The notes under the pieces were generated by a model. That model ran no database searches. It saw only the letters and a program-made list of their open reading frames with translations, and was not told the origin of the DNA. From the NCBI RefSeq assembly GCF_018977255.1, contig NW_024704765.1, positions 4,588,001 through 4,652,000 on the forward strand: a DNA stretch of 64,000 nucleotides. Reading direction: 5' to 3'. Of this stretch, positions 12,603-36,000 are shown one piece after another. This stretch comes from Callorhinchus milii. Its lineage: Eukaryota. Position 1 is the first letter of the stretch, and every line of letters begins with the position of its first letter. Both the position numbers and the translations under genes were made by a program.

Positions 12603-15600
12603 TTATGTGAAGTAATGTGGCTTCTTCACGTTAATGCCGTACTCTGTGAGAGCAGGGATCAGGTCTTCCATGGTGAGTGTGTACTTTTTGTCCTGGGGAA
12701 ACATTCAGCCAAGAGCGAAAAGTCCATTATATGAAGGATCAGAGTACAGATAGAAACAGCAGCTCACAACAACCACAACAACTTGCATTTATACAGCGCT
12801 TCTCATGCAGGGCAGCATCTCAGAGCGCTTAACGTTTGTAGTTTGATGCCACAAAAAGACATGATGGTTATGTCTGCTGTTCTGGTTACTTTAGGATAAT
12901 TTAGTTTTTTTAAAAAAAACTTAAAATTGATGAACTCCTTGTTAAATAAAATGTTTGTTTGGGGAGAGTGCAGAGTAGTCAGAGCAAACATTCACAAGCT
13001 TAACACATATTTCTGCTGCCCAACCAAGCAGCGCTGTGGATACTATGGCAATCTCTCCCCTTCCCAATCCAGATCAGATAATTCAAAACAGAGCGGGGTT
13101 CGAACTGACAACTTTCTAGTTATGTTGAACCTGGACATACCTTACTCTTGTTCCTGGAGCTTCCTGATGCCGTCCCCTTCATCTTACAGTGCTGCAAGGC
13201 ATCGTTTGCAATATCTGAGATGAACTTTTGTGCAGCCAAAGATATGAGACGAATTCTAGTTAGGAACACACACGGGGAGCAACAGTTACACAACAACAAG
13301 AACAGGAAGGGACATGAAGAGGACTTTAAATTCATTCCTTAAAAGATGACTTGAGTTGAGCTAAAACAAAATGACCCACAGCTCACTCTCAGCATAATGA
13401 TAATCCTAATGATTTTATTCTAAAAGGACATGCCATCTAACAGAGAGACATCAAACCAAGTCTTCTCTGTTCTCGTAAGTGAAGGATCCTGTGACGCTAT
13501 TGGAAAAGGGAGAGTCTACAGGGCAAACGTTTGTAAGCTTAATGCACATTTCCCCCCAAAACTGTGCGCGCGCGCATGTGGGGTGTATGTGTGTGGTTCT
13601 CCAGTGCAAAACTAGCCGCCTGCCTTGTTTTGTGCATCAGGAAGAATAAACTATCGCCGTTTTAATTGACGGAATTTGAAGCAAATTTAATGTTAACTTA
13701 CATGCGCGGGTCAGAAGCCTCGAACCCTGCCCTGTTCAGGTAATAGCCTGTCACAGCATCAGGTATCTGAAAATGAAACACACACACGCCACACAGTGTT
13801 AAAATTCTAAATGGCTGAAACACGCATAAATTTGTACCACTGTCAATACCACTTTCGTCTCAGCTGCATTTTTCAAATTCAGTTTCACGCCCAGCGATCA
13901 GCAATTCCTTTACGCTTAACGGTTAACTGTTATGGGACGTGCGTTGACCCCGTTATAATGCGCTCTGGTGCAGTGTGGGTCTGCGCCTCCCAGTGATGGG
14001 TTGGTATTATTTACACAATTAGGATTTCTCAAATTTATATAGATCTCCCCCAAGTGACACAATCATCCAGTGACATAATGAACATAAGGAATGGTGGCCT
14101 CTGGGGCAGTACTCCTTATTCACTTCCATATATCAACAATAAATTACATTTGTACAGCTCCCTTCACGTCGGAAAGACATCCCAGGGCACTGGACAATCA
14201 AGAGTTTTTTGGACTCGACATTTGAGTTAAGGTCAGGAGGGGTGGCGGCAGGAAGTGGGAGGGTGGCCGAAGGCACGATCGAAGAGGAAGGCCTTTAGAT
14301 GGGACTTGGAAGAGGCAACAGAAAGGGAAAGGTGGAGGGATTGCAGGATAGCATTCTAAGCCACGAGGGGTGTGGTCTCCCCCACCACCCACATTCAGAC
14401 TACAGTAATAGGAGAAAGACTGCTCCATACTTACAACTCACCTCCCTTTAAATCGTTTACAATCGATCGACTGTCTTGTCAAAGTAATTTTGGTGCCAAA
14501 TTTCAGTGTCAAAGTAGTTAACTTAAAAATCACTTTTTTTTATAGAAAAAAATGCAAACAATCTTACTGTTGGTGTGTAATCCTCCAGTTGCATGAGAAA
14601 GTCTGCCAGCGGCGTGGTCGAGATCACGGGTTTGACGTCTCCATTCGCAATCCCTGACGGAATATAGACACCGTTTGACACGGATGCCTCGCTTGCAGAA
14701 GCGGCAGCAACTGAGAGCCACGGAGAGAATCAGGAGGTAAGGGGAGAAGGAAAAATAAAGATAATGAGGATTTTTTTTTAATTCAAAGGCATTTTATTGC
14801 ACATTACCACAAACTTCACAAATAAATAAGTTCAGATCTTAGTTGGAAATAATAATAACCCTTGCATTTGGTATGGAGCCTGATCACGTCTGTGAGACGT
14901 CTCAAAGTGCTTCACAGAAGAAACTGACTGTATTTTGTGGACAAAAATCCTTATAAAACAGGAAAAGTTTAAAAAATAATAAGTGTCTTATGATCAATAC
15001 AGATGATAAAAAAAATCTATCTTTGCAACCATGTCAATGGCCCTCTTCCTCCTCGCTCAAAGACTGATCCCACCATTTGGAAGACATTATATGTGTGCAA
15101 TGGGGCGGGCTCGAATCTGTGACTCTCAGACTCGGACACGAGAGAGAGAGAGAGAGAGAGAAAGGCCGAGACGCTTCACACAGGGAGCGGGCACAAAACT
15201 CGAGCGTTTGGGAGCTGGGTTTGAGGCTATCCGGCGTCTACCTTCCTTCAGAGATTGAGACGGAGACCTCAAAGTATGGACAAATCAGATAAATTTCTGT
15301 TAGAAAATAATCTCTCTGGATACCGTATACAGTTTGGGATACGACACGTCATGCGACTGCCAGGATGGTGAAAGGCGAACTCGATGGACCTCGGGCTTCT
15401 TTCGTCTCTCGCGATCCTTCTGGTCTTAGGTCAAACCTGTGACATGTCAAGTCACTACAGTGTGCTCTTGGGAGTCCTGTGGCTCAGTGGTTAGAGCACT
15501 CACTTTGCAAGTGAGAGACCTGAGTTCAATCCCAGGCAGAGGGCGAAACCTTGGGCAAGTTTCCTTACTCCACACAGAGCCTAATAATAATCCCTCCAAA

Positions 15601-16171
15601 ACAAAACAATAATAAATTGGTCATTGTCAATCTACGACTGTTTGTGGGACATTGCTGTGTGCAATTGGCTGCCGCGTTCGCCCACAAATATACAGTCAAT
15701 TCACTTTACAGTGTGTTCTGTGAAGCGGCTTTGGGACGTCCTCTCCCGACGTGAAAAGCGCTGTGTGTCAAATGCGAGGAATATTATTATTATTATTACA
15801 CTTCGCGGCGGATTCCTGGAAGACGGGAGAATGGCGCCGCATCGGAACGCGAGGATTACGACTGTTATAGCATTGCTATCGTTCGAACAACAACCCCCAC
15901 ACTCGGTGCGATTGACTGCTTGGATTGTTTGGGCCTGGTCCGGCCTGGTCCGGCCCAAACTCCACACATTTTTACCTCACAGTCAAGGCCGACTCCCCCT
16001 CCCTCCCTCCCTCCCTCCCTCACCAGCTGCCGCCGGTCCCCCGCTCCCTGTCGCCGCCGCCGCCGCCGCCGCCGTCGTCGTCGTCGCAGCCGCCACCGCC
16101 GCCGCCGTCACAGTCCCGGCCCCGGTCACAGCCGCCACCGCCGCCCCGACCTGCGAGCTGTCCGCGTTCAT
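12603..16171 (-). CDS. TAF10: Transcription initiation factor TFIID subunit 10; coding exons (minus) 16171-16024, 14710-14568, 13766-13702, 13255-13141, 12692-12603 (186 aa)
   Basis: Spliced protein has an Ala-rich N-terminus, then ...[115 protein letters not shown], the TAF10 histone fold. Exon lengths sum to 561 nt; introns are GT-AG. Confidence 0.97.
15471..15797 (+). mobile_element. Full-length tRNA-headed SINE in TAF10 intron 1
   Basis: tRNA-like head with A/B boxes, Deu-like core TGTGCAATTGGCTGCCGCGTTCGCCCAC, and (TTA)n tail. Confidence 0.9.
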
Positions 16172-16339
16172 GGCGCCGCTGAGCCCGAGCCGCGGCTCTC
16201 CACTCCCTCTTCCCGCCCCTCCACACCACGGCGCGCACGCGCGCGCGCGCTGGCCTGTCCCGTCCCGCGCTCAGCCCGCTCCGCCCCGTCACGCGCCCGC
16301 AGCTTGGTTCCGCTGTGCAAACTGTCCCCCCCACACCAC

Positions 16340-17680
16340 ACCACACACTCATACACACTCACAGCTAGTCTCACACTCAGACATACTCACAATCACACAT
16401 ATACTCACCCCGGCACACTCACATATATATTCACACTCACACACTCACATATATATTCACACTCAGATATATATTCACACTCACACACTCACATATATAT
16501 TCACACTCACATATATATTCACTCACACACTCACATATATATTCACACTCACACACTCACATATATATTCACACTCACACACTCACATATATATTCACAC
16601 TCACACACTCACATATATATTCACACTCACACTCACATATATATTCACACTCACACACTCAGATATATATTCACACACACACACTCAGATATATATTCAC
16701 ACACACTGGCACACTCAGATATATATTCACACTCACACACTCAGATATATATTCACACTCACACACTCAGTTATATATTCACACTCACACCCCGGCACAC
16801 TCAGATATATATTCACACACACTGGCACACTCAGATATATATTCACACTCACACACTCAGATATATATTCACACTCACACCCCGGCACACTCAGATATAT
16901 ATTCACACACACTGGCACACTCAGATATATATTCACACTCACACACTCACATATATATTCACACTCACACACTCACATATATATTCACACTCACACACTC
17001 AGATATATATTCACACTCACACACTCAGATATATATTCACACACACTGGCACACTCACATATATATTCACACTCACACACTCACATATATATTCACACTC
17101 ACACACTCACATATATATTCACACTCACACACTCAGATATATATTCATACTCACACACTCAGATATATATTCGCACTCACACACTCAGTTATATATTCAC
17201 ACTCACACCCCGGCACACTCAGATATATATTCACACACACTGGCACACTCAGATATATATTCACACTCACACACTCAGATATATATTCACACTCACACCC
17301 CGGCACACTCAGATATATATTCACACACACTGGCACACTCAGATATATATTCACACTCACACACTCAGATATATATTCACACTCACACCCCAGCACACTC
17401 AGATATATATTCACACACACTCACACACTCAGATATATATTCACACACACTGGCACACTCAGATATATATTCACACACACTGGCACACTCAGATATATAT
17501 TCACATTGACACACTCAACAATAACAAGAAGAAGTTTACATTCGTATAACGCCTTTTTTGGGGAGGATGTCCCAAGGCACTGGACAGTGTACACTCAGAT
17601 GTATATTCACACTTTACACCCTGACACACTCAGATGTGTATTCACACTTACACACTCACTGATTCACACTGACACTTACA
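16340..17680. repeat. Minisatellite, 26-bp basic unit (CTCACACACTCAGATATATATTCACA) with 90-bp higher-order repeats
   Basis: Directly visible tandem array. The variant marker CCCGGCACAC recurs at 16791/16881 and 17209/17299 (90-bp period). Copies decay at both ends. Confidence 0.95.
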
Positions 17681-17874
17681 AGAAGAATAACTTGCAATGT
17701 TGTAGTGCCCTTTGGCAATACTGAGAGGGTGGGGTGGGTGACTTAAGAAGTGGTGGTGACCCTTTAGGGGCAGGGTCGAGTTTACTGAAAATATATAAGT
17801 AATAAAGAAACAAGTATAATATGTTATATATTTATTTACCCAATGACACTGGGAATCGAAGTGGTCTGTAAACG

Positions 17875-18068
17875 AGGGGCGGGGCTAGCGGATTAGGGGG
17901 CGGAGCTAGTGACGTATAGGAGGCGGGGTTGTGCTTTGGGGGCGCGGGGGGTGAGTGGGTTAGGGGGCGGGGTGAGTGACGTGAGGGGGCGCGGGGCTGG
18001 GCTTTGGGGGCGGGGTGAGTGACGTAAGGGGGCGGGGCCGGGCTTTGGGGGCGGGGCGGAGTGGGGTT
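17875..18068 (+). promoter_or_regulatory. PPIH CpG-island promoter with GC boxes and CRE/ATF-like sites
   Basis: Multiple GGGGCGGGG boxes and TGACGT at 17910, 17977 and 18020, immediately upstream of the PPIH ATG at 18069. Confidence 0.7.
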
Positions 18069-21000
18069 ATGGCGGCCACGGCGACGAACCCGGTCGTCTT
18101 CTTCGACGTCACCATCGGCGGCCAGGTACAGACAGCGGGCCCCGGGAGCAGGGCAGGGACCCCGGGGGGGGGGAGGCGTGAGGAGAGAGCCGGGGCTTGG
18201 GGGCCTAATTCCTGAGGGGAGCCGGGCCTCCTGCGTGGGGGCCGCGCCGCGCTTTGCTGTCTTTTCACACACGTGGGGCCTGTGTCAGGGAGGCGGCAGC
18301 GGTTCTGGAATGTTCCCTCCCTCCTTCCCGCTTCACTGACACGGAGGGGGGGGGGACAAACATGTCTCTTGTGGTGAATGTTGATGTCCTCTCCCCTCTC
18401 CTCTCCCAGGGCGGGTGGGGCAGCTTCTCTCATGGTGATTCCCACTCCTGCACCGACGGGGACGGGGGGGGGGTGGGGGAGGGGTAACAGTAATAACAGT
18501 AATAATAGTAATAATAATAATAATAATCCTTGCATTTGATATAGCGCCTTTTCACGTCTTCTCGATGTCCCAAAGCGCTTCGCGGACTGTGCTGCAAAGT
18601 GAATTGACCGTATATTTGTGGGCGAACGCGGCGGCCGATTCTGCACAGTCCCACCAACAGCCGGTGGATTGAAAGTGACCCGATTTATTATTGTTTTTGT
18701 TTTTTTTGGTGGGATTATTATTAGCGCTGTGTGTGGAGTAAGGAAACTTGCCCAAGGTTTCGCCCTCTGCCGGGAATTGAACCCATCTCGCTTGCAAAGT
18801 GAGCGCTCTAACCACTGAGCTACAGGGCAACGCAGGTAAGCCATACACGGATAAGCCATGACTATTAATAATTATTAATAATGATTAATAATTAGTTGTT
18901 GGGAGTCCTGTAACTTAGCGATGAGACCGCTCGCCACGCAGGCACGAGGACCTGGGTTCGATTCCTGGGCAGGACGAAACGGGGTGGCCAAGTTTCCTTA
19001 CTCCACGTTGCTTTCCTGGGGATAATAATCCTTTCAAAATAATAATAATAATAATTTGGTTACCCAATCCACGGCTGTTTGTGGGACACTGCTGTGCGCA
19101 ATTGGCTGCTGCGATTTGACCACAAAATATACAGTCAATTCACTTTACAGTATATCATGTGAAGCGCTTTGAGACGTCGCGACGACATGATAAGGCGCTA
19201 CTTCAAATGCATGGATTATTATTATTAACATTTGGGGATCACTGGGTTGGTGCCAGGATATCTTGACATTATTGGAATTCAATTTAATTATTTTATTTAA
19301 TTGCACTAAATTGTTACAGACCCACCACTCGTAATTCTACTAACTGTGTTGCGGTTACATTTGCCTCCAAAAGACCCACCTCCTGGACAGTCACTTCACT
19401 TGACATCTAAACTTCATGGATGTTTAATCTCTGAGATCCTCACTCGCATGAAGGGTGCTACGTAATTGCAATTTGCTGTTGATTTTTGATGGGACATTGC
19501 TGTACACAAATTGGCTATCCCAAAATACACAGTCATGACAAATCCTGAGATGCGCTTTACGTTTTGTTGCCGTGATAAGGCTCTGTCAAATGCAACATTA
19601 TTATTTTAAAGCTTCTTGTTATCTTAGGGGAAATCTGTATTTCTAGCATCTCAGTTCACCTACCTCCGCAGCCTATTAACACAATATCAAATGCAAGGAT
19701 TATTATTATACCAACTTGTCTGCTCCTTTCTCGCTGTGGGCACTGGCCTGCTCCATGTCCGTGTCTGCCACTGGCGGTCGGGCCTTCAGCTTTTCTGCCG
19801 TCACCCTTTGGAATTCCATTCCAGAATCCCTCCACCTCGTCTTCTCCCTTAGTTCCTTCAAGGCCCGTTATGGAGTCCTGTAGCTCAGTGGTTAGAGCAC
19901 TCGCTTTGCAAGCGAGACACCTGGGTTCAATTCCAGGCAGAGGGCGAAACCTTGGGCAAGTTTCCTGCCTCCACACAGAGCCTAATAATAACCCCTCCAA
20001 AACAAAACAATAATAAATTGGTCATTTTCAATCCATGACTGTTTATGGGACTCTGCTGTGCACAATTGGCTGCTGTGTTTCGCCCACAAATATACAGTCA
20101 ATTCACTTTACAGCATATTCTGTGAAGCGCTTTGAGACGTCTAGAAGACGTGAAAAGCGCTATATCAAATGCAAGGATTATTATTATTTTCTCAAGACCT
20201 TCCTGTTTGACCGAGCCTTCAGCCACCCTCCCTTACCTTTCAACCTTCTTGATTCCAACACCCAGCTCGGGTACAAACCCTTAAACCCTCCAGCGTGCAG
20301 GATGTTCTTCCAACATGGTAGGCTCTATACAAATACAATTTGTTGTTGTTCCCGAATTGGGTGCAAGTGTGTTATGAACAAACCATTGATAAAGGTATTC
20401 CTACAGCCTACACCCAATGTCCACTGATCTCCCATTGAAAGCCTTCTGTGTATTTGTGTGTTGGGGTGGGGAGTGTATTGCTCTTGTGAAAACTGCAATC
20501 ACAATCTTTATTCATAAATCAACTCAATTAAGTTTATTAACCAACATGGATACAACAAGTTTATTAACCAACATGGATACAACAAGTTATCAGTAATCAC
20601 TGATTCGTTTTCAAAGTTATCAGTAATCACTGATAACTTTGAAAACGAAACCTGGAAGATTTACGCAACAAAAGATACACCCAACAAAAGTATGTGGTGA
20701 AGCAGGTTATGCAAGGAGCAATTTCCTCCTCCTCCCTTTTTCCCCTGGGCAGAATCTTGGTTTAATGCAATATCCAATCCACCCCAAAAACACTGCACTC
20801 TGCACAGCTCAACTATGTGACCCAGAGACGAGAATGCTAGCGACTGAGCCAAGCTGATACCTGAAGAAAAAAGGCTGCCTCAGATTTTAACTGGGTGAAA
20901 AAAAACAAAAAATCTTGAAAATACAACATATTCCCAATTTACATTTATTATTACATGTCACCTTTCCCGTCGGAACGAGGTCTCAGAGTACTTGGATGGC

Positions 21001-24000
21001 ACAGATTGAACGTGAAATTCTATAAGTCTTGGCACACATTGACTAGCGTCCTCTCTGGTTGTGGCACCGAGCTAGGCTCGTGTGTTCTGGGCCTGCACAT
21101 TGATCTGCAGATGTTCCAGTCGTAGATAGGCTCTGGAAAGTGTACGGCTGAGTCCAGCTGGCCAGCCTTGCACCAGTATAGAACTCTTATTGCAAAGCTG
21201 TTGAAGCACAGAAGGAAGAAGGTGTTCATGCTGATGTAGGCCGGGACTGGAATACGTAGGAGAATGCACACACTGCTTATCATCATAAAGGGCATCCAGT
21301 TACAAAGGAAGCTAATGGCAATGCAGAGCAGCAAGGGTGCATTGTCTTGTGTCGGCAGGCTGAGCAGCGGGCTCTCCCTGGGCTCCTTACAGCTGATGAA
21401 TACGTTGCTTTGCAAAGAAGGTGGTTCATCTGCTGTGGTGAACAGCTGGAAATTGGACACCCTCATAGACAACGCAAAGGCAGGAATTGACCACCAAGCT
21501 GAAAGCCCAACCAGGACCGAGAAAGCCATCATCACAAGCGAGCAGATCAGTATCAGATCAGTGCTGTGAATTGGACAGAATTGAACCTTTAAGTTGTCAT
21601 GTATCAGGACCTGCAGCCCCGAAATGGAAGTGCTTTGAAGCATGTAGGTTATGGCGGCTGCCCACACAGCCACCACCGCCAGCCAGTAGCCTACACTCTT
21701 CTTGCGTGAAAGCAGGCAGGGCTCAGCCTGAAGGTTGTAATAATTGTCGACTACAGTCAAGATGAAGATGGGAGCATGGATCCCGGTGTACATCCCAGAG
21801 AAGAACTGCAGCACTGAGCACAAGACGGAAGCCTTGATGTCAGGAGTCTCAGAAGAAAGAAACAAAACTGTGCCAAAGAGCAAAAGATCAGAGGCGCACA
21901 GTGTCACAGTGAAAGCCCCCACGATACTCCGCCATAGACTTTTGTTTGCAAAATAAAAGCTAACGTAGTTCAGCACACATTTCAGCAGGAGCAAAAAGAT
22001 TATCTCAGTGGTATTCAACAGAGGGGCCTCTCTGTCAGCAGCAGCATTTGGACTACTTTGCAGGAGAACAAGCATTTTTCGCACTTCCTCACTACTCCGT
22101 TCTTTTTTTCAGTACGGGGGGGAAAAAAATGCAGATTAGTCCAACTATCTCCTTGCCAGCCTCCCAAGCTCATACAGAACTCCCATCTCCCACATTTAAC
22201 TCCAAGTCCTAGTCTTTTTAGCCCCCTCTGCCCCCCCCACCCCACCTTGAGAATAACTAATCTTCAAATACTTCCATGCTCTTAAACCTCCCTTATTTAG
22301 TACTCTGCTTCCCACGCTGTTTTACGACCCTCTACACTCTCCAGCTCTGGCTTGTTGCGTCTCCCTGTCTCCTGTCACCTGCACTCTGATCTTCTCGGTA
22401 AATGTTGGCAAATTAATAGGGAAGACAATTACATAAAAAAATTAGGAAATAATATCGCAGAGCAACAAATATTTTGTTTTTGTAGCGCCTTAGGTCTACA
22501 TTTCAGTCTTAGTTACTTCTTTATGCAGTGTAGCAGGCAAAATCAGCGAAGATTTTATGCAAAACAAAGATAGTATCTTCGACAATACAGTGCTCCCCCC
22601 ATCATTGCACTAGATTGTTAGCTCAAGTCTTAATGTGGGGCTCAAATAGATTTCTGGCTCAGTTGGTAGCACTCTCGTCTCTGAGTCGAGAAGGCTTTCG
22701 GTTACAACCCCAGGTCAGGGCTTTAGGTTCTAGCCTCATGTTAGGACATTGAGTTCATTGTCTAGTTAGACACTCCAGTGCAGTGCTGGGGTTTGCTGCA
22801 TTGCTGGAAGTACTGTCCTTCAAATAAACATTAAACCGACGTCCCTTATACCCGTTCAAGAGGATGCTAAAGATTCAAAAGAGAGGAAGTTTCTCTCGGT
22901 GTCCCGGCCAACAATCCCCCAATTAAAATTGGTCTAAAAAAAATCTGGTCACTCAATTATAATAATAATACTTGCATTTGACATATAGCGCCTTATCACG
23001 CCTTCACAGAATAAAAAGTAAAGTGAATTGACTATATATTTTGTGGATGAAATGCGGTAGGCAATCACACACAGCAGTGTCCCACAAACAGTCGTGGATT
23101 AAGTGACCAATTTATTATTTTTTTTGAAGGAATTATACCCCCCCAAAAAAGCAATCCGCCAACTGACTAACAAGCGGGTTACTCCAAGTAAACAGAGGTG
23201 TGCGGAGTAAGGAAATTTGCCCAATCTTTTGCCCTGCCAGATCTCTTGCTTGCGAAACACGTTCTCTAACCACTGAGCTACAGGATTCCACGGCAACCAA
23301 TTGCGCTGCCGTGGATCCACGACTATTTGTGGGACACTGCTGTGCGCAATTGGCTGCCGCATTTCGTCCACAAAATATAGTCAACTCACTTTACAGTATA
23401 TTCTGTGAAGCGCTTTGAGATGAATCTTAAGACGTAATAAGGTGCTATATCAAACGCAAGAATTACTATTGTAGAATCATAGAATTATACAGCACAGAAA
23501 GAGGCTACTCAGTCAGTGCATCAGCCATGCCCTCACTTCACTTCACAGTAAATCCTGTAATGCACTTTGAGACAAAGTGAGACAAAGTGCACAATTCACT
23601 TTACAGTATATTCTGTCAAGCGCTAGAAGACGTGAAAAGCGCTACATCAAATCCAAGGATTATTATTCTTATTATTACCAATGTGAAAGGCGCTCTGCAA
23701 TGGAAGGATTTTTATTTTTTGAACTCACAACCTTTCTAATCCTGAAGTGAGAGCGCCACAAACTGAGCCAGGTAGATCTGCAGTTACAGGCTCTACAATC
23801 TTAAAACTGACAATTGAAATGGATTTATGTCAACGCCCAGTGTAAAACATTCCCAATCACTCCGTATTTCAAACCTAGGTTTCACTAACCAACTAAAAAA
23901 AATCCCCTAATATAGGGCTAGATTTATTTGGAGAGATTAGCGAGCAGATGAGAATGTTTGTACCTACCTGAATTTTACTGAACAATAAGAAGCAGGTGAC

Positions 24001-27000
24001 TATTCTCTTACCTGTAATCTCTTACCTGTGTGCTTGTGTCATAAAGGAGGTTGTCCTTAATAGCCATATGGTGTTTTCTAGCTTCCTTTAAAGGTGGATC
24101 TCAACTGTTGTCATGCTCCAAAGCAACTATAATAATAATAATAATCCTTGCATTTGATATAGCGCTTTTCACGTCGGGAGGACGTCCCAAAGCGCTTCAC
24201 AGAACACACTGTAAAGTGAATTGACTGTATATTTGTGGGCGAACGCGGCAGCCAATTGCGCACAGCAATGTCCCACAAACAGTCGTAGATTGAAAATGAC
24301 CAATTTATTATTGTTTTTTGTTTTTTTGGAGGGATTATTATTAGGCTCTGTGTGGAGTAAGGAAACTTGCCCGAGGTTTCGCCCTCTGCCTGGAATTGAA
24401 CTCCGGTCTCTCGCTTGCAAAGCGAGTGCTCTAACCACTGAGCTACAGGACTTTGAATATGTAAAACGCGTAATACAGAAGCACAGTGATCGGGGAAGCA
24501 CTGCATTATTGGAGGAAGAAGTTTAACGAAGGTCCCGTCTGCCCGTTCAGGTTAAATATCTGAAGGCACTTTTTGAAAAGAGAAGGGGGATTCTCACTGT
24601 TTCCTGGCCTATAATCTCAACTGTATGGAGGACCTTGGTGGTACATTTGGCTGCTACGTTTGTCCACAAAAACAGTTATTGGCATCTATACTGTGAAGTG
24701 CTTTGAGACATTTTTACATAGAATTACAGAGAATGTACAGCACAGAAACAGGCTATTCAGCCCAAATGGACTATGCTGGCATTTATGCTCCATATAACTT
24801 CTTAACGTCTTAACTTATCCTTGTGGTAGCAAGTTCTACATTCCCACCACTCTCTGGTTAAAGAAGTTTCTTCTGACTTTCCTATTTGATTTATTGTTCA
24901 TGCTTTTATCACCTCCAGGCTATGCAAACGCCCTGCTTCTCCTGCACCAAACTCCGTGACCCCATCTCCCTCACTCTCGTCCGACTCCATTGGCTCCCTA
25001 TCCTTCAGAGAATCCAGTTCAAGATCGTGGTCCTCACATACAAAGCCCTCCATGGCCTCGCCCCACCCTACCTCTGCGACCTCCTAACCCCCTACCAACC
25101 CGCCTGTTCCTTCCACTCAGCCGGTTCCAGCCTGCTCCACCCCCGACCCACCTGCCCCAACATTTGTATAGCGGGAGAGCCTTCAGCCACCCCGCCCCCA
25201 GGCTCTGGAATTCCATCCCCCAGTCACTCCACCACGCCCCCCTCCTTAGCCTCTTTCAACTCCCACCTCAAGACCCTCCTCTTCGACCATGCCATCGGCC
25301 ACCCCTCTTCCCCTCTCCTCCTTCCACTTCCACCCCCGACCCCAGCTCAGGTCTGAAATGCTGTACTCTGTCCAGTGCCTTGGGATGTCCTGAAGTGAAA
25401 GGTGCTATACAAATGTAATCTTGTTGTTGTTGTTTTCGAAATCCGTGCTGAGTATTTATTATACATTTGGTTTCTAGATGTTTTTCTATTACCTCTTTCA
25501 GTAAGGATTACCATTTTAATTGGCTAATATGCCAAAAACAGCAAGTTCTTCATTTCCAGTGGAAACAAGAAACAAGCAATTCCATATAAAATCTTAATAC
25601 AACGATCATTTCTATAGAGCCCTTCACGAAGGGTAACGTCTTGGAGTACTTTACAACGGTGGGGTTGGATGCCGAGGAAGGAAGCAGAGGATGATGGTAA
25701 GAACTCTGAGACGCTATCCTGCGTGAAGGGTGCTATATAAGTGCAAGTTGTTGTTAGTGATCGTCGGCACAGTTGGAGAGGTAGATTTTAAGGTGAGATT
25801 TAAGGATAGATAGAGAAGGAATGATTCAGATGGATAGAGGGTTGGGGTTCCAAACGTTAGGGGAATAGTGACTAAAGGCTTGGCCACTGATGGTGGTGCA
25901 GCAGACTTGTGTTAGCTGAGTGGGGGGAGTGAACAGTGGAGTGGAGAACACGCAGATAAGGGAAATAATAGTAATGGTTAAAAGCATGATTTTACTGAAC
26001 AGTTTTTCTCATCTCATTTCATTCTGCCTGTTAATACTACTACTAATAGTCCTTGCATTTGGTATAGAGCCTTATAATAATAATAATAATAATAACCCTT
26101 GCATTTGATATCGCGCTTTTCACGTCGGGAGGACGTCCCAAAGCGCTTCACAGAACACACACTGTAAAGTGAATTGACTGTATATTTGTGGGCGAACGCA
26201 GCAGGTAATTGCGCACAGCAATGTCCCACAAACAGTCGTAGATTGAAAATGACCAATTTATTATTGTTTTTGGTTTTGGAGGGATTATTATTAGGTGTGT
26301 GGAGTAAGGAAACTTGCCCAAGGTTTCGCCCTCTGCCTGGAATTGAACTCAGGTCTCTCGCTTGCAAAGCGAGTGCTCTAACCACTGAGCTACAGGACTC
26401 CGTCATCCTTATTACGTCATCGATTTTACTGTGAATTGTACTGTGTACTTTGTAGGTGAATGTAGCAGCCAATCTAAACACAGCATTGCCTTGCAAACAG
26501 CCATGGAGTAAATGGGCAATTTTTAACTGGGGGCTATCAGCCAGGTCACTGAGGGAGAGAGAAACTCTCTTCCCTTTCCCAATTGTGCTGTGGGATCTTT
26601 TAACGTCCACTTGAACGGGTTTAAAATCTCTCCCGAAGGACTTAAAGGGATTTTGCTGAATTTGAAATAATATACCAATTTGAAAGATTGTCACGTTGAT
26701 TCAGTAATCAGAACTTTGCCCATACCAAATATCATAATGATAATAATAACCCTTGCATTTGATATAGCGCCTCATCCCCACCATTGACAGGAGAGTCTTC
26801 AACCACTCTGCCCCCAACCTGGAATTCCAAACCCCAATCACTCCACCTCGCCCCCTCCTTAGCCTCCTTCAAGTCCTGCCTCAAAACCCTCCTCTTCAAC
26901 CATGCCATCGGTCACCCCCCCTTCCCCTTCCCTCCCTTCTCCCTCCCTGACCCCAGCTCGGGTCTGGTACTCTGTCCAGAGCCTTGGGACGTCCTCCCGA

Positions 27001-30000
27001 TGTGAAAGGAGCTATACAAATGTAAACTTGTTGTTGGCTTTGTTGTTATCGCATCTATATCGAGTGCAAGGATTATTACAGAGCGCTTCACAGAATGTAC
27101 TGTAAAGTGAGTAGACTGTATACTTTATGGACAAAACGCAGCAGCGAATTTCGCACAGCAATGTCCCACAAACAGTGGTGGATTGAGTGACCTTTTGGAG
27201 AATAATTATTCTGTCAAATACAATTATTCTGTTGGAGAATAAGTGAATACTTTTGAAACTGTTAATTACTTAAGTTTCAACATTACAGGCACAACAGGTT
27301 TGTCAGTTTCAGTAAGTATTGCAAGCCAGTTATTAAAAGCCAATTATCCTGTGCATAAGATCTGGGGGGCAAAAGCACGACTTAAGTGAATTTGAAGAAG
27401 ATCCTGTCCCATGTCTCTCGCTTACGAGGCGAGTGCTCTAACCACTGAACCACAGATACCTTTACCTAACAAATACAGGGTGACTAAAAAGTCATGATAT
27501 TACCTAAAAAATATATATAAGCAATTGTTTACAATAATAATGATAATCCTTGCATTTGATACAGCATCTTGTGTCTTCGAGATGTCTCAAAGCGCTTCAC
27601 AGGGTATACTATAAAATGAATTGACTGTAAAATTTGTGGGCGAAACGTGTTGCCAATTGCGCACAGCAGTCTCACAAACATTGGTGGATTGGGTGACCAA
27701 ATTACGATTTTTATTTATTTAAGTACAATTTACAGAAACGTTGTAAGGGGCGTTGTGCCATTTCAGTGTGATAAGGCATGAGGTCAAATGAAAATATTAT
27801 AATTCCTGATATTATAATTCCTGATATTGCTAAGCGATTCCTATTGAGCCCTCCATCCTCTGAATGGAGATCCTTTCGGAGCAAGGTTCTCCTGGAGTTC
27901 AGTCCAGGTTACCCAATCAATTTATTCTTTAAAGTCTCTATTGCGATGCTCAGATTCCTTATTAAGGAATCTTATGAAGATTTAGACTCCCGTGGGTGGA
28001 TTTCTGTCACGCTTGTTTCAGGGTGCATCCATCGTTGGGTGATTGTTGATTTTCCTGATGAGCATTGGCGCCTTAAGTATATGCTGTGTGTGCTGTTTTT
28101 TCCCTCCACCAGCTGAAGGTCTATAATGCATGTTGTGTAAACGGTGTGTAAACTGCTGGGATCTATAATGGGTCTATTATGGGAATTGTTAACACTGTAT
28201 ACACCTGGAAATTGGAGATATCCTTAGTTATGTTAACAGGCAACCAAACCTTCTATGGCACTGCTGACGACAGCACAGCTGGCTCATCGGCAGGACTCAG
28301 CAGAGCAACAACAACAACAAAAAAATTACACTTATAGTGCGCCTTTCACGTCGGGAGGACGTCCCAAGGTGCTGGACAATCACGGGTCAGGACCCGAGCA
28401 TGGGGGAGTGATGGGGTAGGGATGAGGGAAGACCATTCACTGGAATAACAACCACAACAAATTACGCTTGTCTAGTATCTTTCACTTTGGGAGGACGTCC
28501 TGATCCTCATAGGTGCCTTTTTCCACACCCAACTCTTAAGGTGGATTTCTTTTCATTCAGTCCCAGGTTCTCAATACCACGTGCAAGCATTCAGTAAATA
28601 CCTGGGGCTCCTGCTTGCCTGAGGAATGTGTGGCATTTCTGAAAACTCTTAACTCTCACAGCCGATAATATAAAACTACTTTATATCATTCAGACTTGTA
28701 TATGTGTATCAGTTCTCTGAAACTCTTCCTCCCCACCCTTTAGTTTTATATTGTGGAGTCCTGTAGCGTATTGGTTAGAGCACTCGCCTCGCAAACAAAG
28801 GGACCTGTGTTCGATTCCTGGTCAGGGCAAAACTTTAGGCAAGTTTCTTTACTCTACACGCCTCTATTTACCTAGCAGTAAGTAGGAACCTGGGTAATAA
28901 TTCCTTCAAAAAAAGAATAAATTGGTCACTCACTTTACTGTTTGTGGGACACTGCTGTGCGCAATTGGCTGCCGCGTTTCACCAACAAAATATAAAATCA
29001 ATTCATTTTACGGTATGTTCCATGAAGCGCTTTAAGACGTCTTGAAGATGTGATAAGGTGCAACATCAAATGCAAGGATTTTCTTTTCTTTTTCACATAA
29101 CTGCCCAATTCCCTTTACGTACTGCTGCAGTTTCTCCCCATTAACCGTATCAAAACTCCGTCATCATTTTTACACCTCTTTCATGTCTCCTTTCAATCTT
29201 CCTCCGTTCTAGTGAAGTTACAGTATAATCTTCACATTCAATGTAGGATTTCACATCAGGAGGATGAGTCAGAGTGCTTCACAGGATTTCACTGTAAAAT
29301 AGAGTGCTGTATGTTTTATAGATGAAAAGAACCCCAGATTCTCATATTTCCATCCACAAAGTACACAGTCACCACACTGATCAGGATTGTTCCAAATCCC
29401 TACTAGTCCTCACCCTTCCCTACCTTTCCAGCTTCACTCTCCTGTCCCCCTCCACTCAGCAAACCAGGCCTATGGTGCATTCCTTGCCCCCTCCATCCCG
29501 CCATTGGCGGCCGAGCCTTCAGCTAGTATACCCCTACACTCTGCAACATTCTCTAAATCCTTACACCTCTCCCCCTCTCTATCTGTCTTTAAAATCCTCT
29601 TAAAAATCCTACCTCTTTGACATCTCCTATGTTTATCTCCACCCTCCCCACTCTTGTGTGCATCACCGTCATTGTAAGGGGCTCTGAGATAATTACTCTA
29701 GATGAAACGCGCGTTGTATTAATGTAAGTTGTTGTGTATTTCTGGTGAGAGTTTACATGGCTCACAGTCTAGGCTGTCGCTCCGGCACAGTAGTGGGGGG
29801 AGAGCACTGCATTGTTGGAGGTGCTGTCATTCAGATGCGCAACTCTACTTGTAAAGAGAAAGGAGTTTACCACAACATCTTGCATATTTTTTGATATAGC
29901 GCCTTATTGTTACTGGGATAACTCAAGGCACTTCACATAATATATTGTGTTTAATATCAATCCACTTTACAATATATAAATATATTTGGGAGGATCTTGG

Positions 30001-33000
30001 ACAACAATCCTCCAGAAAATTGGTCACAGGAGCTATTATTTTGTTCCTTGACTTGAGCAAAATGACAGTAATTACTGCACCTAGAACATTTTGTGTCGTT
30101 TTGACATCTGTTCAAAGTGCACGTTTCTGCTTTGACCACGCCCCTGACACAACACTCTACATTATCTACTTCCTTGACGATAATCTGAAATGTGATCGAC
30201 TTTTACATTAAGGAAGTTGATAAGCAAGTGGTAATAATAATCCTTGCATTGGATATAGAGTTTTTCACATCTTTGAGACGTCTCAAAGCGCTTCACAGAA
30301 TATACCGTCAAGTGAATTGACTGTATATTTGTGGGCGCAACACGGCAGCCAGTTGCTGATCTTCTACACAATTACATTTGTATAGCACCTTGGGACATCC
30401 TCTCAATGAGAAAGGCCATATCCAAATGTAATATGTTTTTTATATTATAACATTGTAGACCAGTTAATCCAAAATGGCTGTGTGTTTCTAAGTGAATGTG
30501 AACCCGATGGAAAATTCCATTGTTTGTGTTCAAATTTGAATTTATTCGAAGTATTCCATTGCATTTGTTCATTTGGGAGGGTGGGGGGGCAGAAGTCAAC
30601 TGTATGTTTTCAAATTTGTTATTGAAAGCAAATAAAATGTTATGCCATCATATGTTCTCTCATTTTTATATGTATTATTACCTTATTAGTATACCTGTGA
30701 TCTTTATTATTTCCCAGATAAACGGTTAAACATGACCAAGTTAAGCACTATGATTGACAGCAATTTGCTTTGAAGTGATTTGAGACATTTATAGGCGAAA
30801 TATAAAATACAAAAGGCTTTTAACATTGTTATGGAGTTTTTATAATGCAGATAATTACTTGCATTAATCTCTTACTCTCTCCCTTCCACCCACCTGCAGC
30901 AATAATAATAATCTTTGATTTGATATAGTGCTTAATTACGTTTTCGAGACATCTCAAAGCGCTTCACAGAATATACTGTAAAGTGAATATACTGTATATT
31001 TTGTGGGTGAAACGCACAGCAGTGTCCCACAAATAGTCGTGGATTGAGTGACCAAATTTTTTTCTTTTTGTTTAAATTCAGTTAACCTTTTTTTTGAAGG
31101 GATTATACCCCTCGGAAGAGTGATCCGCCAATTGACTAACAACTGGGTTCCTACTTACTACTTGGTAAAAAGAGGCATGTGGCGTAAGGAAACCGGTCTA
31201 ATGTTTCGCTTTCCCCAGGAATCGAACCTATGTCCTATCGCTTGCAAGGCGAGTGCTCTAACAAATCTCCTAGCAGTCGTAATAGCAAATACAGAACTGT
31301 TAGCAGTAAAGTAATGATACTTGCGTTTGATGGAGCCCCTTATTGATCGAGGCTAAAGGTTTCAAAGTAGTTTGCAAGGTGAAATGATTGTGGGTTTATT
31401 CATTACTTTACCCAGAGTGACAGGTGTGAGAGACCCAGAAAATTCATGTCTTAACTAACGTGTTTTTCCTAAAGGAGGTGGGCCGGATGAAGGTGGAATT
31501 GTTTGCAGATGTAGTGCCGAGGGCAGCAGAGAATTTCAGGTACCAGTCTTTGTGATTCGCTAATAACATCAGATATCATCAGATACCGTTAAGATCGCTT
31601 TCAATTCCCATGTTTTTTCTGCCCTGCATTATTGAGCAAATCTTTATTTTTCTGATTTAGGCAATTCTGCACAGGAGAATTCAGGTGAGCACTTATTTTT
31701 TCTTGTCAAATTTAGTCTGATTAATCTCTTATTGACTATATTTTCTGGGTGAAATGCAGCAGCGAATTGCGCACAGCAATTGAGTGGCCAAATTATTATT
31801 TTAAAAGATTGTGAAGGTTTTAGCAATGTGATAAGGTGTTATATCAAATGCAATGATTATTATTATTCGAAATTTCTTTCATTTTAATTGGCTTGAACTT
31901 GCTACTACTCCTTAGAAGATCAGTCTTTCACTTTCTTTTTCTCCCAACAGAAAGGATGGCGTGCCTATTGGATTCAAAGGATGTACTTTCCACAGGTCCG
32001 TGTTGATATTTGTACTGTTTAATCTCCACACAACCTACCTACCTTTTGTGCCGCTAACAATTGTTTGGCGAGGGAATGTCGTAAAAGGTGCCAGCCTAGC
32101 TCTCGCCTACGAGTCTGGAATGCTGCGTTATCCCAGTGGTATGTTTTGTATTCTGTGCCTGGAATCCGGATCCACCGCCTCAAAACCACCGCCTCTAAAA
32201 GCACCTTCTCTTTTCCAGGGTGATTAAGGACTTCATGATCCAAGGAGGAGACTTTGTAAATGTGAGTTCCACAATGAGGGTTCATGTGCCCCAGTAATAC
32301 AGTCATTCACTGTTTGCTCTCTTTTACCATCCATCCATATTCCCAGTTAACAGGGCATCTGTTGCCTGATCTCTTGTGTGGAATTAACGGCCCGGACAAG
32401 TGGCCAGGAAGGCAAACGTGCAAATCGCCTGCTGGGTTCACCTATGGTACAATACAATACGATCGTCACCTTAGGAAAGCTGATTGATTGACTGCTATGG
32501 GATTGACAGGGATTTTATTGATTTATGTGCTGGTGTATTGGTCCCCATGTAGAGTTAAAAAGAGTTTTTTTTTTAAAAAAACTCCTCTCTCGCCCACCCC
32601 CCATTTTTAAATGGTCGCCGCGTTCCGTGGCAGTTGCAGGGACGGAATTCTCAGCCTTGCTGAAGGCTCCGGAATTCTAGGGGGGGATTGAAAGCGTGAC
32701 CAATGGGGATCCCAGGACTGCTCAAAAATGGACCAATAGGAACCCCCCCCCCCCCCCCCAAAATGGACCAATGGGACTTCCCCAATATGGACCAATGGGA
32801 ATCTCCGATCTCCCCAAAAATGAACCAATGGGAGCCCCAGAAACTCCTGCCCCAGATGCACCAAATGGGAATACCAGAACTCCTCTAAAAATGGACCAAT
32901 TGGAATACTGGAGTCACCCCAAAAGAAGGTATAGAATTGAATCGGATGATTAGAAGGGAGCAAGAGAGAGACACCGGAAGGATGTTAAGAGAGAGAGATT

Positions 33001-36000
33001 AACCAATGCGTTGTGATCCAGTACAATGATGGAAAAGGCTCAATTGCCTCCACCCTCCTCCTGTTCTCTTTGACCGAGCCTTCAGCTCCCCTCTCGACTC
33101 TCTTCCCCCTCCTCGCTCCCTCCCTTCCCTTCCCTCCCCTCCCCCTGACCATTTCCCCCTCCTCTCTCCCTCCCTTCCCTCCCCTCACCCTGACCATTTC
33201 CCCCCTGCTCGGGTCATGACCCAACTGTGCAGCGCCTTGGGACGTCCTCCTGACGTGAAGGCGCTTTATAAATGGAATCTTGTTGTTGTTGTTGTTGTTC
33301 CTATCTAACTGATCTGCAAAAAAACAATTCCCCTTAAAAAACATTCTTGCTTCTACTTGATGATTTCCTTCTGAAGGTTGCTTGCTTCTCCTCCGCAGGG
33401 TGATGGAACAGGTGTGTGCAGTATCTACAGAGGTGTTTTTGGAGATGAAAACTTTAAAGTTAAACACTCATTACCCGGTTTCCTCTCCATGGTAAGGCTT
33501 CATTGGTGATGTGCCTTTCTTTCCCTTCTCCCCCACTTCCCTTCTCCCCCCCACCCCCCAGGAAAATAAGTAACAACCAAACTTCTCGTACTTCTATCTC
33601 GAACAGGCAAACAGTGGCCCGAACACAAATGGGTGTCAGTTCTTTATTACCTGCTCCAAGTGCGACTGGCTTGACGGGAAGCATGTAGTTTTCGGTAAGT
33701 GAGGAAAGTTGGTAAGGTTTGTCACCGCAAGTGGCCAGTTAACTGGCCAGCAGGAGTTCCTGAGAAATAAAAAGGGAAATTAATATTAATAATAATCCTG
33801 GCATTTGAAACGCAGCAGCCAATTGCACACATTATTATTATTAAATGAAGGATAGAGGTGGAAAGTGGCACAAACACGATGGGCCGAATAGCCTCCTTCA
33901 GCGCAGATGCGTTTCCGCGAAGCGAATCCGCAGGTGATTTCATGAGCAGATGTGGGAGTTGGACCTTGCGCTCTGGGATGCTACCCTGCATGAGGGGCGC
34001 TACATAAATGAAAGTTGTTCTGGCTCTGCGATCGACCCAACAGTGTGCCACGTGTTGCTCTCTGTCCCTCTACCTACAACTAATCTGGCATAAGGTGAAT
34101 GCTTTGAGAAACAACAATTTTTTGTTGCTTTGGAAAGGCAGCCAGCACCATTGCCCAGAAACCTTGAAGCAACAACTTGCAGCGCCTTCACAAAGGGTAG
34201 CGTCTGAAGTGCTGAACAATGGCGTAGCTTCACCGAGCTGGAGAAAGGGGAGGTGTCCGTAAGCTAAGTCCAATTGGAAAGTCTTCTGGCGCGAGGTTAT
34301 AGAGGGGGCAAGGTAGAGGGATTAAGGCAGAGGTTCAGGGTGTAGTGGCTGAAGGCGTGGCCACTGTTGGAATGGAAGGGTCGAGGGATTGCGTAGAACA
34401 CATCTTTTTTACTCAGAGGTAATATGAGTTCAGTGTTGCTGCTCTCTGGTGTTTGAATGGAATAAAAGCAACAAAGACTTGCACTTTCTCTGTCCTTGTG
34501 TCAAAATGTCTGAGGACGTTACAGAAATTACTGTCAAGTGTAGCGATTATGTTTGCGAGCAGGTATTTAACACGCCTAATAATAATCCCTCCAAAACCAA
34601 AAACAATAATAAATTGGTCATTTTCAATCTACGACTGTTTGTGGGACATTGCTGTGCGCAATTGGCTGCCACGTTCGCCCACAAATATACAGTCAATTCA
34701 CTTTACAGTGTATTCTGTGAAGCGCTTTGGGACGTCCTCCCGACATGAAAAGCGCTATATCAAATGCAAGGATTATTATTATTTTGCGCCATCTACAAAC
34801 TGCCATGAGATGAATGATGTGGAGGATTATTGGCCCAGAAACCGTGAGAAAAAGAAGCTTCTCTTTTGGAACACTTGTCATAGGGTCTTTAACGTCTTGG
34901 AAAAACAGCCAGGAAGGACCTTGTTATTAACATCTCATCCAAAGGACAACATCCCTAAGAGTGCAGCACTCCCCGAGTCCTGCACTGGATGTCAGTCTAG
35001 ACAGAAGATAGGTCCCAACAAGAGGCTTGAACCGACAACGTTTGACACGTGCTACCAACTGAACCCAAACCAACTCAAGGGGTATTGAATGCATCAAGTT
35101 AAAGTCACCCGTGCTACACAAACTCTCCAGATAGTTGACTAATTAATGGTCTTAACAATATTGAAACACAAAGAGAATGTTTAAGAAGATTACTCAAGGG
35201 TGGCAATTAGAAGTCAGCTTTGAAGTAACAACACAGTATAACAAACTGCTACCAAGGGAGGGCATGTATCTGGGACTGTGATTGCTATCTCTCCCCCCGC
35301 ATACACAGAACACAGTATACCCAAATACTGAACTGTTAACCTGAGTGATGTTTTATATCAAATTTATTGAACACCTGATAAGGCGCTATATGAAATGCAA
35401 GGATTATTATTGTATAGTCCTGTAGCTTAGTGGTTAGAGCACTCACCTCGCAAACGAGAGACCTGGGCTTGATTCCCGGACAGGACAAAAGGTTGCGTAA
35501 GTTTCCTTATTCCAGATGCCTCTGTTACTTAGCAGTAAGTAGGAACACAGTTTTCACAGTGTATTCTGTGAAGCGCTTTGAGATATCTCGAAGGCAAGAA
35601 AAAGCGCTTCTCAAATATCAAATGCAAGGATTATTATTATCCTGCAGTTGTGCTCCTCAACAATTTTCATGTAAAGAAAATCTTGCTGTGCATTCAAAAC
35701 TAGATGCCTAGCTTTTGAAAAAAAAGTCATTAGTTTCGGCGGAAATGCTCCAGCAAATGGCATATTTTAGGGACAAAGGATTGTCATAGCTGTGAACGGG
35801 CAGTGTTCGATTTTATTATAAATGTGAATTTAGCTGCAATATTTCTACCGAACAGGAGAGTAAAAACAGTGTTACAAAACAGCATCGTTAGTTGGATGAT
35901 TTATCTGCTTCTTGTCCACAAAAACCAGTAAACTTGGCAATAATTGCTTATGAAGCCCTTTGAGACGTTTTGACAATGAATATTGTAAATTTAACTAACC

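Follow-up and report, generated by a model that had tools for sequence, protein, structure and literature searches.

We analyzed a 64,000-nt stretch of the genome of the chimaera Callorhinchus milii (NCBI RefSeq assembly GCF_018977255.1, contig NW_024704765.1, positions 4,588,001 to 4,652,000 of the forward strand), referred to here as the window. The window contains a receptor gene of the GPR160 family, which lies antisense within intron 1 of PPIH. We identify this nested gene with good confidence as the C. milii ortholog of another GPR160 gene of ancient origin, the si:dkeyp-100a1.6 type. It probably stems from an early vertebrate genome duplication, and it is predicted to encode an atypical orphan receptor. 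The gene and its relatives are already catalogued as GPR160 or under a clone name. What sets the gene apart is the shared nesting, a likely reciprocal loss of the two copies under misleading database names, and the access that it gives to a disputed orphan receptor.

The receptor open reading frame (ORF) and the intron that holds it are as follows.

21020-22075, minus strand: coding sequence of the receptor (GPR160 paralog, clade B, si:dkeyp-100a1.6 type), ATG to stop, 351 amino acids plus stop, intronless
18126-31474, plus strand: PPIH intron 1, 13,349 bp, about 42% repeats, contains the receptor gene

The stop-free frame enclosing the ORF is 362 codons long. The longest stop-free frame in 200 mononucleotide shuffles of PPIH intron 1 had a mean of 136 codons and a maximum of 217. 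Repeat matches against 264 kb of the same genome cover 42% of the intron and 0% of the ORF, which sits within the longest unique block of the intron (20650-22653). The receptor ORF is real; the gene is intact, its coding exon is uninterrupted, and it runs antisense to its host within PPIH intron 1. A preliminary description of this DNA, made from its letters, had claimed a stop-free 351-codon ORF on the minus strand at this position, and the ORF is present. Mapped PPIH exons on either side bear out its placement in intron 1, and the claim of an intact ORF within a large, repeat-rich intron holds as well. The motifs that it named, VDNY in transmembrane helix 3 (TM3) and NSF in TM7, are both present as stated. 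The minus-strand poly(A) signals that it reported correspond to four AATAAA sequences downstream of the ORF. It had also counted seven hydrophobic segments. A Kyte-Doolittle scan (window, 19; cutoff, 1.6) clearly picked out five hydrophobic regions and left TM3 and TM7 under the cutoff; the count of seven comes from the AlphaFold2 model, in which seven helices are predicted.

The nested receptor is, by sequence similarity, a member of the GPR160 family. In the ESM Atlas, the top three clusters for it are all GPR160 (0.95-0.98). A HMMER search retrieved 49 representatives at E values up to 0.001, and the receptor resembles proteins named GPR160 along the full seven-transmembrane region. Names were obtained for 21 of the 49. 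All 20 of the bony-fish, skate, and tetrapod clusters that were looked up belong to the GPR160 family by name or profile. ESM Atlas, HMMER, and the motifs agree with the GPR160-like assignment of the preliminary description. It had also called the receptor uncharacterised. The gene is already annotated. RefSeq lists XP_007896087.1, a "probable G-protein coupled receptor 160" from Callorhinchus milii that differs from the receptor by one residue. The Callorhinchus entry in UniRef, A0A4W3HIL3, is also the same gene, with 45 internal residues missing and a different C terminus. The missing residues belong to the TM5-TM6 loop, and both changes apparently come from predicted introns that are superfluous to the open frame. 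The GPR160 label hides paralogy to human GPR160.

All eight invariants of the family (K32, D63, P102, C167, W260, P278, N284, and S293 in a 60-row alignment) are kept in the receptor. It also keeps the cysteines of TM3 and extracellular loop 2 (ECL2), C86 and C167, which are predicted from the sequence to form a disulfide. It keeps D3.49 and the W6.48/P6.50 pair (a W260/P262-type TM6 motif). All 28 family rows, the receptor among them, lack R3.50 and the NP of NPxxY (TM3 of the receptor reads D-N-Y). Residue numbering follows in part alignment to 5-HT5A. The unbroken 362-codon frame, about 30% identity to the closest relatives, and the eight retained invariants together point to long-term constraint.

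The family profile matches G-protein-coupled receptors (GPCRs) of class A among PDB sequences, with 5-HT5A (E value, 6e-12), 5-HT2, and beta-adrenergic receptors, and the seven-helix model with an ECL2 hairpin is likewise similar to that class. The receptor differs from class A GPCRs in its missing Pfam match, its degenerate DRY and NPxxY motifs, and the low structural similarity of its predicted model. A Pfam scan of the receptor alone found no family; PF00001 (7tm_1) matched 11 of 60 family members at E values up to 0.1. A search of PDB sequences with the single protein gave one match (E value, 0.33), which we take as chance. Word-seeded homolog searches were insensitive, with 2 matches for the query and 5 for the clade B alignment (8,000 candidates scored), and they are no evidence of absence from sharks or tetrapods.

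Two trees were built. The first contained 41 of 51 proteins (length, 295 to 400); 8 fell outside the length range, and two near-copies of the query were omitted. The second contained 28 chosen rows, with near-duplicates, fragments, and most teleosts omitted. Both trees part the family into two clades. Clade A is canonical GPR160, whose members come from sharks and rays, tetrapods, coelacanth, and ray-finned fishes. Members of clade B come from lungfish, coelacanth, sturgeon, bichir, holosteans (gar and bowfin), and teleosts, and some of them bear the name si:dkeyp-100a1.6. In coelacanth, spotted gar, and bichir, one gene falls in each clade, and the two are on contigs of unequal length. The 28-row tree separates 16 canonical rows from the query plus 11 bony-fish rows with support of 100/100, and each side broadly tracks the species tree. 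The query falls outside clade A (100/100) and is sister to bony-fish clade B (89/89). This is the position expected of a cartilaginous-fish clade B ortholog. Forcing the query together with 8 elasmobranch clade A rows cost 47.6 log units and was rejected by the approximately unbiased (AU) test (p-AU, 9.9e-5).

Similarity scores and loop length give the same placement. Profiles built with the query left out scored it at 208 bits for clade B versus 119 bits for clade A. Its best BLAST matches were the bichir and sturgeon clade B proteins (141 and 132 bits), with the best shark or ray clade A protein at 97 bits. The span from the ECL2 cysteine to the TM6 tryptophan is 93 amino acids in the query, 83 to 103 in clade B, and 76 to 78 in 15 of the 16 clade A rows. 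The clade B profile was the better fit for 39 of the 49 HMMER representatives, the clade A profile for 9, and neither for 1, with profile members scoring high by construction. By these comparisons, the chimaera gene is a paralog, not the 1:1 ortholog, of canonical GPR160. The preliminary description had proposed a paralog rather than an ortholog, and the AU test, clade split, and profile scores agree with it. It had further proposed retention in this lineage, to which the gene is not peculiar: clade B genes also occur in lungfish, coelacanth, bichirs, sturgeons, gar, bowfin, and teleosts.

The chimaera gene shares with canonical GPR160 the eight invariants and the lack of R3.50 and NPxxY. It is 21 to 27% identical to canonical proteins, its TM5-TM6 loop is about 15 amino acids longer, and it does not contain the TM7 "NVPW" proline. 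The loci also differ: the chimaera gene is in the PPIH intron, whereas canonical GPR160, at 3q26 in human, is in a SEC62-NADK-PHC3-PRKCI-SKIL block. It shares with the other clade B genes (zebrafish si:dkeyp-100a1.6, which is ENSDARG00000092141, and genes named "probable GPR160") the clade in the tree and the long TM5-TM6 loop. It is 22 to 32% identical to them, and its TM3 reads D-N-Y versus D-Y/H-x in the others. It is the only cartilaginous-fish member of clade B that we found. Both lineages carry one database name, and the "GPR160" entries from the chimaera and many fishes are therefore probably not orthologs of the human gene.

The nesting appears to be shared with zebrafish. Supplementary file 8 of PMC5690287 places zebrafish si:dkeyp-100a1.6 at chr8:47,197,688-47,208,002, wholly within ppih (47,162,238-47,215,933). 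The same file places ybx1 at 47,153,363-47,161,620, directly adjoining ppih. Should ppih come before ybx1, as in the window, these coordinates put the zebrafish gene 8 to 18 kb from the ppih 5' end, which would fit intron 1. In the passage at hand from PMC7014666, ppih and ybx1 are neighbors in zebrafish, medaka, and fugu, and the nested gene is unlisted there. Nesting of clade B in PPIH is seen in two species, in the window and by the zebrafish coordinates. The preliminary description had placed its candidate paralog inside PPIH intron 1. The nesting stood, and it is not peculiar to the chimaera, given a probable counterpart within the same host gene in the zebrafish file. The supplements of PMC6594659, consulted for the strand of the zebrafish gene, gave no match. 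The name "gpr160" had no match in 12 files of PMC5690287, which says nothing on presence of the gene. PMC5690287 assigns si:dkeyp-100a1.6 to expression cluster 007, which its tables describe as enriched for gastrulation and mesoderm terms.

Canonical GPR160 was not detected in the C. milii genome. The canonical block is on a second contig, called C11 here. It contains a SKI-family gene (9.957 Mb), a protein kinase gene, a PHC-type gene, an NADK-like gene, and SEC62 (10.056 Mb). We take the first four of these and a further neighbor to be SKIL, PRKCI, PHC3, nadkb, and SAMD7, in part from gene order and PMC6325677. A 21-sequence clade A profile found no canonical gene, either within the 26 kb that surround the slot or across the full 200 kb of C11 (best E value, 0.038, with a score of 1.5, outside the slot). 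The same profile finds the window paralog at an E value of 1e-38. A search for a decayed canonical gene in the slot, with stops read as X, plus tblastn, gave nothing above noise. The slot, from the PHC gene to the NADK-like gene, is contiguous and contains no N; the sole gap, of 30 N at 10,083,330, falls outside it. Genome-wide searches with the skate, sevengill shark, and coelacanth canonical proteins gave the window locus as the only real match (6, 9, and 3 candidates, respectively). A protein search with the skate query gave 16 matches: 14 elasmobranch clusters, all clade A, plus a bird and a mormyrid, with no chimaera canonical protein. The loss of clade A from the C. milii genome is fairly well supported. 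The preliminary description had implied a separate GPR160 beside PHC3/SEC62. None was found there, and the nested gene is the only family member detected. That description had also linked two results to a translocation, namely, a genome with no other GPR160 and a nested protein grouping as the 1:1 ortholog. No other GPR160 was found, and the grouping was rejected.

The opposite loss appears to have occurred elsewhere. No elasmobranch or tetrapod clade B protein was seen among the 49 representatives, 21 of which were looked up by name, and intron-nested genes may lack annotation. These matches agree with the loss in mammals that the preliminary description had proposed. Loss of clade B in elasmobranchs and tetrapods is likely as judged from protein collections, in which missing annotation may also explain the pattern. 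It is common for ohnologs to persist in fishes and disappear from tetrapods. The duplication would predate the divergence of cartilaginous from bony fishes, with nesting in PPIH in place by then and a likely reciprocal loss later. C. milii would have kept only the nested copy, sharks, rays, and tetrapods only the canonical copy, and coelacanth, gar, and bichir both. Next to the slot, a segment of roughly 45 kb that carries the NADK-like gene, SEC62, and a likely SAMD7 is present in two copies, 98 to 99% identical, which flank the 30-N gap (C11:10,038,135-10,127,325). It is probably an uncollapsed haplotype.

Paralogs of the canonical neighbors are on the contig of the window (C24; 10.2 Mb). 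A PHC paralog with HD1, FCS finger, and SAM exons is 216 kb from the receptor (C24:4,826,463-4,832,054). NADK is 440 kb from the receptor (C24:5,049,674), and PRKC and SKI-family genes are about 4 Mb away. The preliminary description had placed paralogs of the human GPR160 neighbors (PHC2, PRKCZ, and SKI) on 1p, the arm of PPIH and YBX1, and in C. milii PHC, NADK, PRKC, and SKI paralogs are all on C24. The four pairs on C11 and C24 fit a block duplication in early vertebrates and give it no date. By tree shape, the duplication predates the split of chondrichthyans and bony fishes. No cyclostome or invertebrate member was among the named matches, and the tree sets no lower bound. The pair of GPR160 genes probably arose in an early vertebrate genome duplication, as read from the gene blocks and the tree. 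The ray-finned fish counterpart of the canonical cluster includes gpr160 in the excerpt of PMC6325677. The polyhomeotic-family gene on C24 may be PHC2 or another paralog. A second NADK gene (nadkb type) adjoins SEC62 (C11:10,041,994-10,053,000) and is paralogous to the gene at C24:5,049,674. The supplementary file of PMC5690287 that lists si:dkeyp-100a1.6 also places zebrafish nadka on chr8.

Contigs from sequencing runs (X1 to X4), presumed to be RNA, were aligned on window positions 15500-35400 (19.9 kb). The features proposed for the transcript are as follows.

22076-22101, minus strand: predicted 26-nt 5' untranslated portion of the coding exon, from contig ends and the AG acceptor
22102-22139, minus strand: predicted splice acceptor with a branch-point-like CTAAT (22135-22139), a pyrimidine tract, and AG (22102-22103), from the sequence and contig ends from two studies
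20507-21019, minus strand: likely 3' untranslated region (UTR), with AATAAA at 20944-20949, 20560-20565, 20533-20538, and 20507-20512
24012-24130, minus strand: candidate upstream noncoding exon, putative, with two consensus donors (CAG|GTAAGA) after 24026 and 24012

Run X1 gave contigs at 20559-21892 and 21894-22101, the latter with 30 extra unplaced letters. X3 gave contigs covering 20914-22103 in three pieces. X2 gave contigs at 20554-20809 and 20922-21815. X4, a run labelled as another organism, gave one contig at 20965-21271 that is near-identical to the ORF end. At 20965, this contig has a 16-letter loose end that we take to resemble a template-switch cDNA adaptor, which suggests a cDNA library and leaves the strand unsettled. 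Position 22101 is the first base past the minus-strand CTAAT, pyrimidine tract, and AG. Contigs of two studies end at this acceptor, a hint that the receptor is spliced from a noncoding first exon into 22101. No joint from 22101 to an upstream exon was among the 15 joints listed (there were 6,653 further joints). Transcription would likely start from the gene's own minus-strand promoter; both strand and promoter are what we infer. A noncoding first exon would then likely be spliced to the acceptor at 22101, as the contig ends suggest, and polyadenylation would likely follow near 20510-20560, where signals are visible in the sequence. The X1 and X2 contig ends at 20559 and 20554 are in a short tandem duplication and need not mark the RNA end. 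The likely 3' UTR contains two such duplications of about 25 to 30 bp (20533-20585 and about 20590-20635), one of which copies an AATAAA.

The AlphaFold2 model of the receptor, from the 60-row alignment, is predicted to contain seven membrane-length helices and an ECL2 hairpin (predicted local distance difference test score, 82; predicted TM-score, 0.81). The ESM Atlas model is also a weak match to solved GPCRs (TM-scores, 0.41 to 0.48). Structure searches put GPCRs in the top rows, and no non-GPCR fold stood above them. The AlphaFold models of the receptor and of a shark canonical protein share one sequence set and have no ordinary GPCR as a control, so that atypical packing is a lead only. 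The lead is either an atypical packing that may be family-wide or a shared modelling artifact.

The receptor lacks R3.50 and the NP of NPxxY, as do all family rows, and on this basis it most likely behaves like GPR160. By analogy, it is rather likely to be a surface receptor with weak or nonstandard G-protein coupling and a ligand other than CART. The preliminary description had called the link of GPR160 to CART peptide contentious. The proposal is on record (Yosten 2020, cited in PMC13494238), and the IUPHAR text in PMC13494238 notes two later studies that failed to support the pairing. In PMC10935005, CART(42-89) left cAMP unchanged with human GPR160 and drew no response in any of 12 G-protein dissociation assays. 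According to PMC13364575, Cart is still called an orphan ligand, and fishes carry several cart genes. The receptor could be a conventional G-protein-coupled receptor for CART peptides, as the GPR160 proposal and the several fish genes would favor. We consider this improbable in view of the two unsupportive studies, the negative assays on human GPR160, and the absence of R3.50 and NPxxY from every family row.

Several points weigh against the reading of the nested gene as a clade B ortholog with a shared nesting. The query branch is long, at 1.58, and drew a warning of possible long-branch joining from the tree tool. The tree has no outgroup, and the root between clade A and the query plus clade B is a parsimony inference. 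Monophyly of bony-fish clade B is 89/89, and other placements within clade B escape rejection (p, 0.089 and 0.070). The 23 diagnostic columns comprise 9 that are B-like, 5 that are A-like, and 9 that are neither. The coelacanth clade B gene is on a 432-Mb contig, and its locus may differ. The zebrafish gene is tied to clade B via tarpon and cavefish proteins that bear its name, and its strand and intron number are deduced. Genome searches score only the best 3 to 9 candidates per query. None of the runs is on record as RNA, there was no DNA control, and the contigs are strandless. The six ORF variants listed are 3 synonymous and 3 nonsynonymous, which is uninformative on selection (329 differences over 19.9 kb). 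The receptor and shark canonical models have Foldseek TM-scores of 0.22 to 0.29 to solved GPCRs, with maximum VIA Z scores of 8.1 and 7.2, respectively, and a root mean square deviation of about 5 to 6 Å.

Some of these points bear on other histories of the gene. In the chimaera lineage, canonical GPR160 may have left the SEC62-PHC3 block for the PPIH intron and evolved rapidly thereafter. The long branch, the 5 A-like columns, the canonical block without the gene, and the lack of any other GPR160 detected in the genome are in keeping with such a move. The AU test rejects the grouping with elasmobranch canonical genes, the top BLAST matches are bichir and sturgeon clade B proteins rather than any shark or ray clade A protein, and an independent translocation would not explain the clade B-named gene that the zebrafish file places inside ppih. 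We consider the translocation very unlikely, and it is already largely refuted. Three old paralogs may instead have existed, with the coelacanth and lungfish genes of clade B separate from the PPIH-nested gene of the chimaera and ray-finned fishes. The support of 89/89, the failure to reject a grouping of the query with ray-finned clade B (p, 0.070), and the large coelacanth contig leave room for this. The best tree matches the species tree with one duplication, and we regard a third paralog as unlikely. A silent relic or young pseudogene would fit runs that are not on record as RNA and variants of which half are nonsynonymous. It has very little probability in our view, since the 362-codon frame is unbroken at about 30% identity, the 8 invariant positions are kept across 60 rows, and contig ends match the splice acceptor.

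Other explanations concern the origin of the pair and the fate of the canonical gene. Ancient retroposition or a single-gene duplication could have placed a copy in the PPIH intron without a whole-genome duplication. The coding sequence is intronless and is within an intron of another gene, and the receptor is 216 kb from the PHC paralog rather than directly adjoining it. Canonical GPR160 presumably also has a single coding exon, and human canonical GPR160 presumably adjoins PHC3. Four families of the canonical slot (PHC, NADK, PRKC, and SKI) are on the same 10.2-Mb contig, two of them within 0.45 Mb, and a random insertion would rarely land there. We find this origin unlikely and prefer the early genome duplication. 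Canonical GPR160 may also still be present in C. milii and be missing from the assembly or missed by the searches, in which case there would be no reciprocal loss. The 45-kb duplicate and the 30-N gap beside the slot are signs of local assembly trouble, and few candidates were scored per genome search. Against this, the slot is contiguous without N, and the skate query returned no chimaera canonical protein. There is only a small chance, in our estimate, that the canonical gene is hidden, and we retain the reading of a true loss.

A broader reading is tentative and somewhat doubtful. GPR160, commonly regarded as a singleton, may be one of an undescribed ohnolog pair that was reciprocally lost: only the nested copy would survive in chimaeras, only the canonical copy in sharks, rays, and tetrapods, and both in bony fishes. 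The second copy would have been nested antisense in PPIH intron 1 since the jawed-vertebrate ancestor. Both would be unusually packed seven-helix bundles without the DRY and NPxxY switches and may lack classical coupling. If this is true, the gastrula-expressed zebrafish copy, as clustered in PMC5690287, would open a disputed orphan receptor directly to genetics. It would offer an ordinary knockout route to function. If antisense nesting is common to the chimaera and zebrafish, this arrangement of nested genes would be very old. One survey (PMC2117022) put GPR160 as the most divergent among human receptors of the rhodopsin family. A second lineage at 21 to 27% identity indicates the residues that both copies must keep, which is useful for structure and ligand work. 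The single database name for both lineages is probably an example of paralogy concealed in a genome that serves as a reference for early vertebrate evolution. Literature titles and abstract openings gave no description of a further GPR160 gene; subscription papers and orthology databases were beyond reach.

The window also contains the host gene and its neighbors.

18069-18125, plus strand: PPIH coding exon 1 (host gene)
31475-37423, plus strand: PPIH coding exons 2 to last (end approximate)
41707-48824, plus strand: YBX1, first coding exon to cold-shock-domain exon (gene continues)

The best PDB match of the PPIH exon at 33607-33696 is cyclophilin H, with 29 of 30 residues identical. The exon of the downstream gene at 48738-48824 is identical to YB-1 in 29 of 29 residues. 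The next-largest gap between mapped PPIH exons is about 2.7 kb versus 13,349 bp for intron 1, with some exons unmapped. Exons of a trypsin-family serine protease are upstream of PPIH (6487-6921 and 8204-8767, plus strand). A long, CA-rich, low-complexity tandem repeat is just upstream of the PPIH start (16369-17721, plus strand) and gives rise to spurious long open frames.

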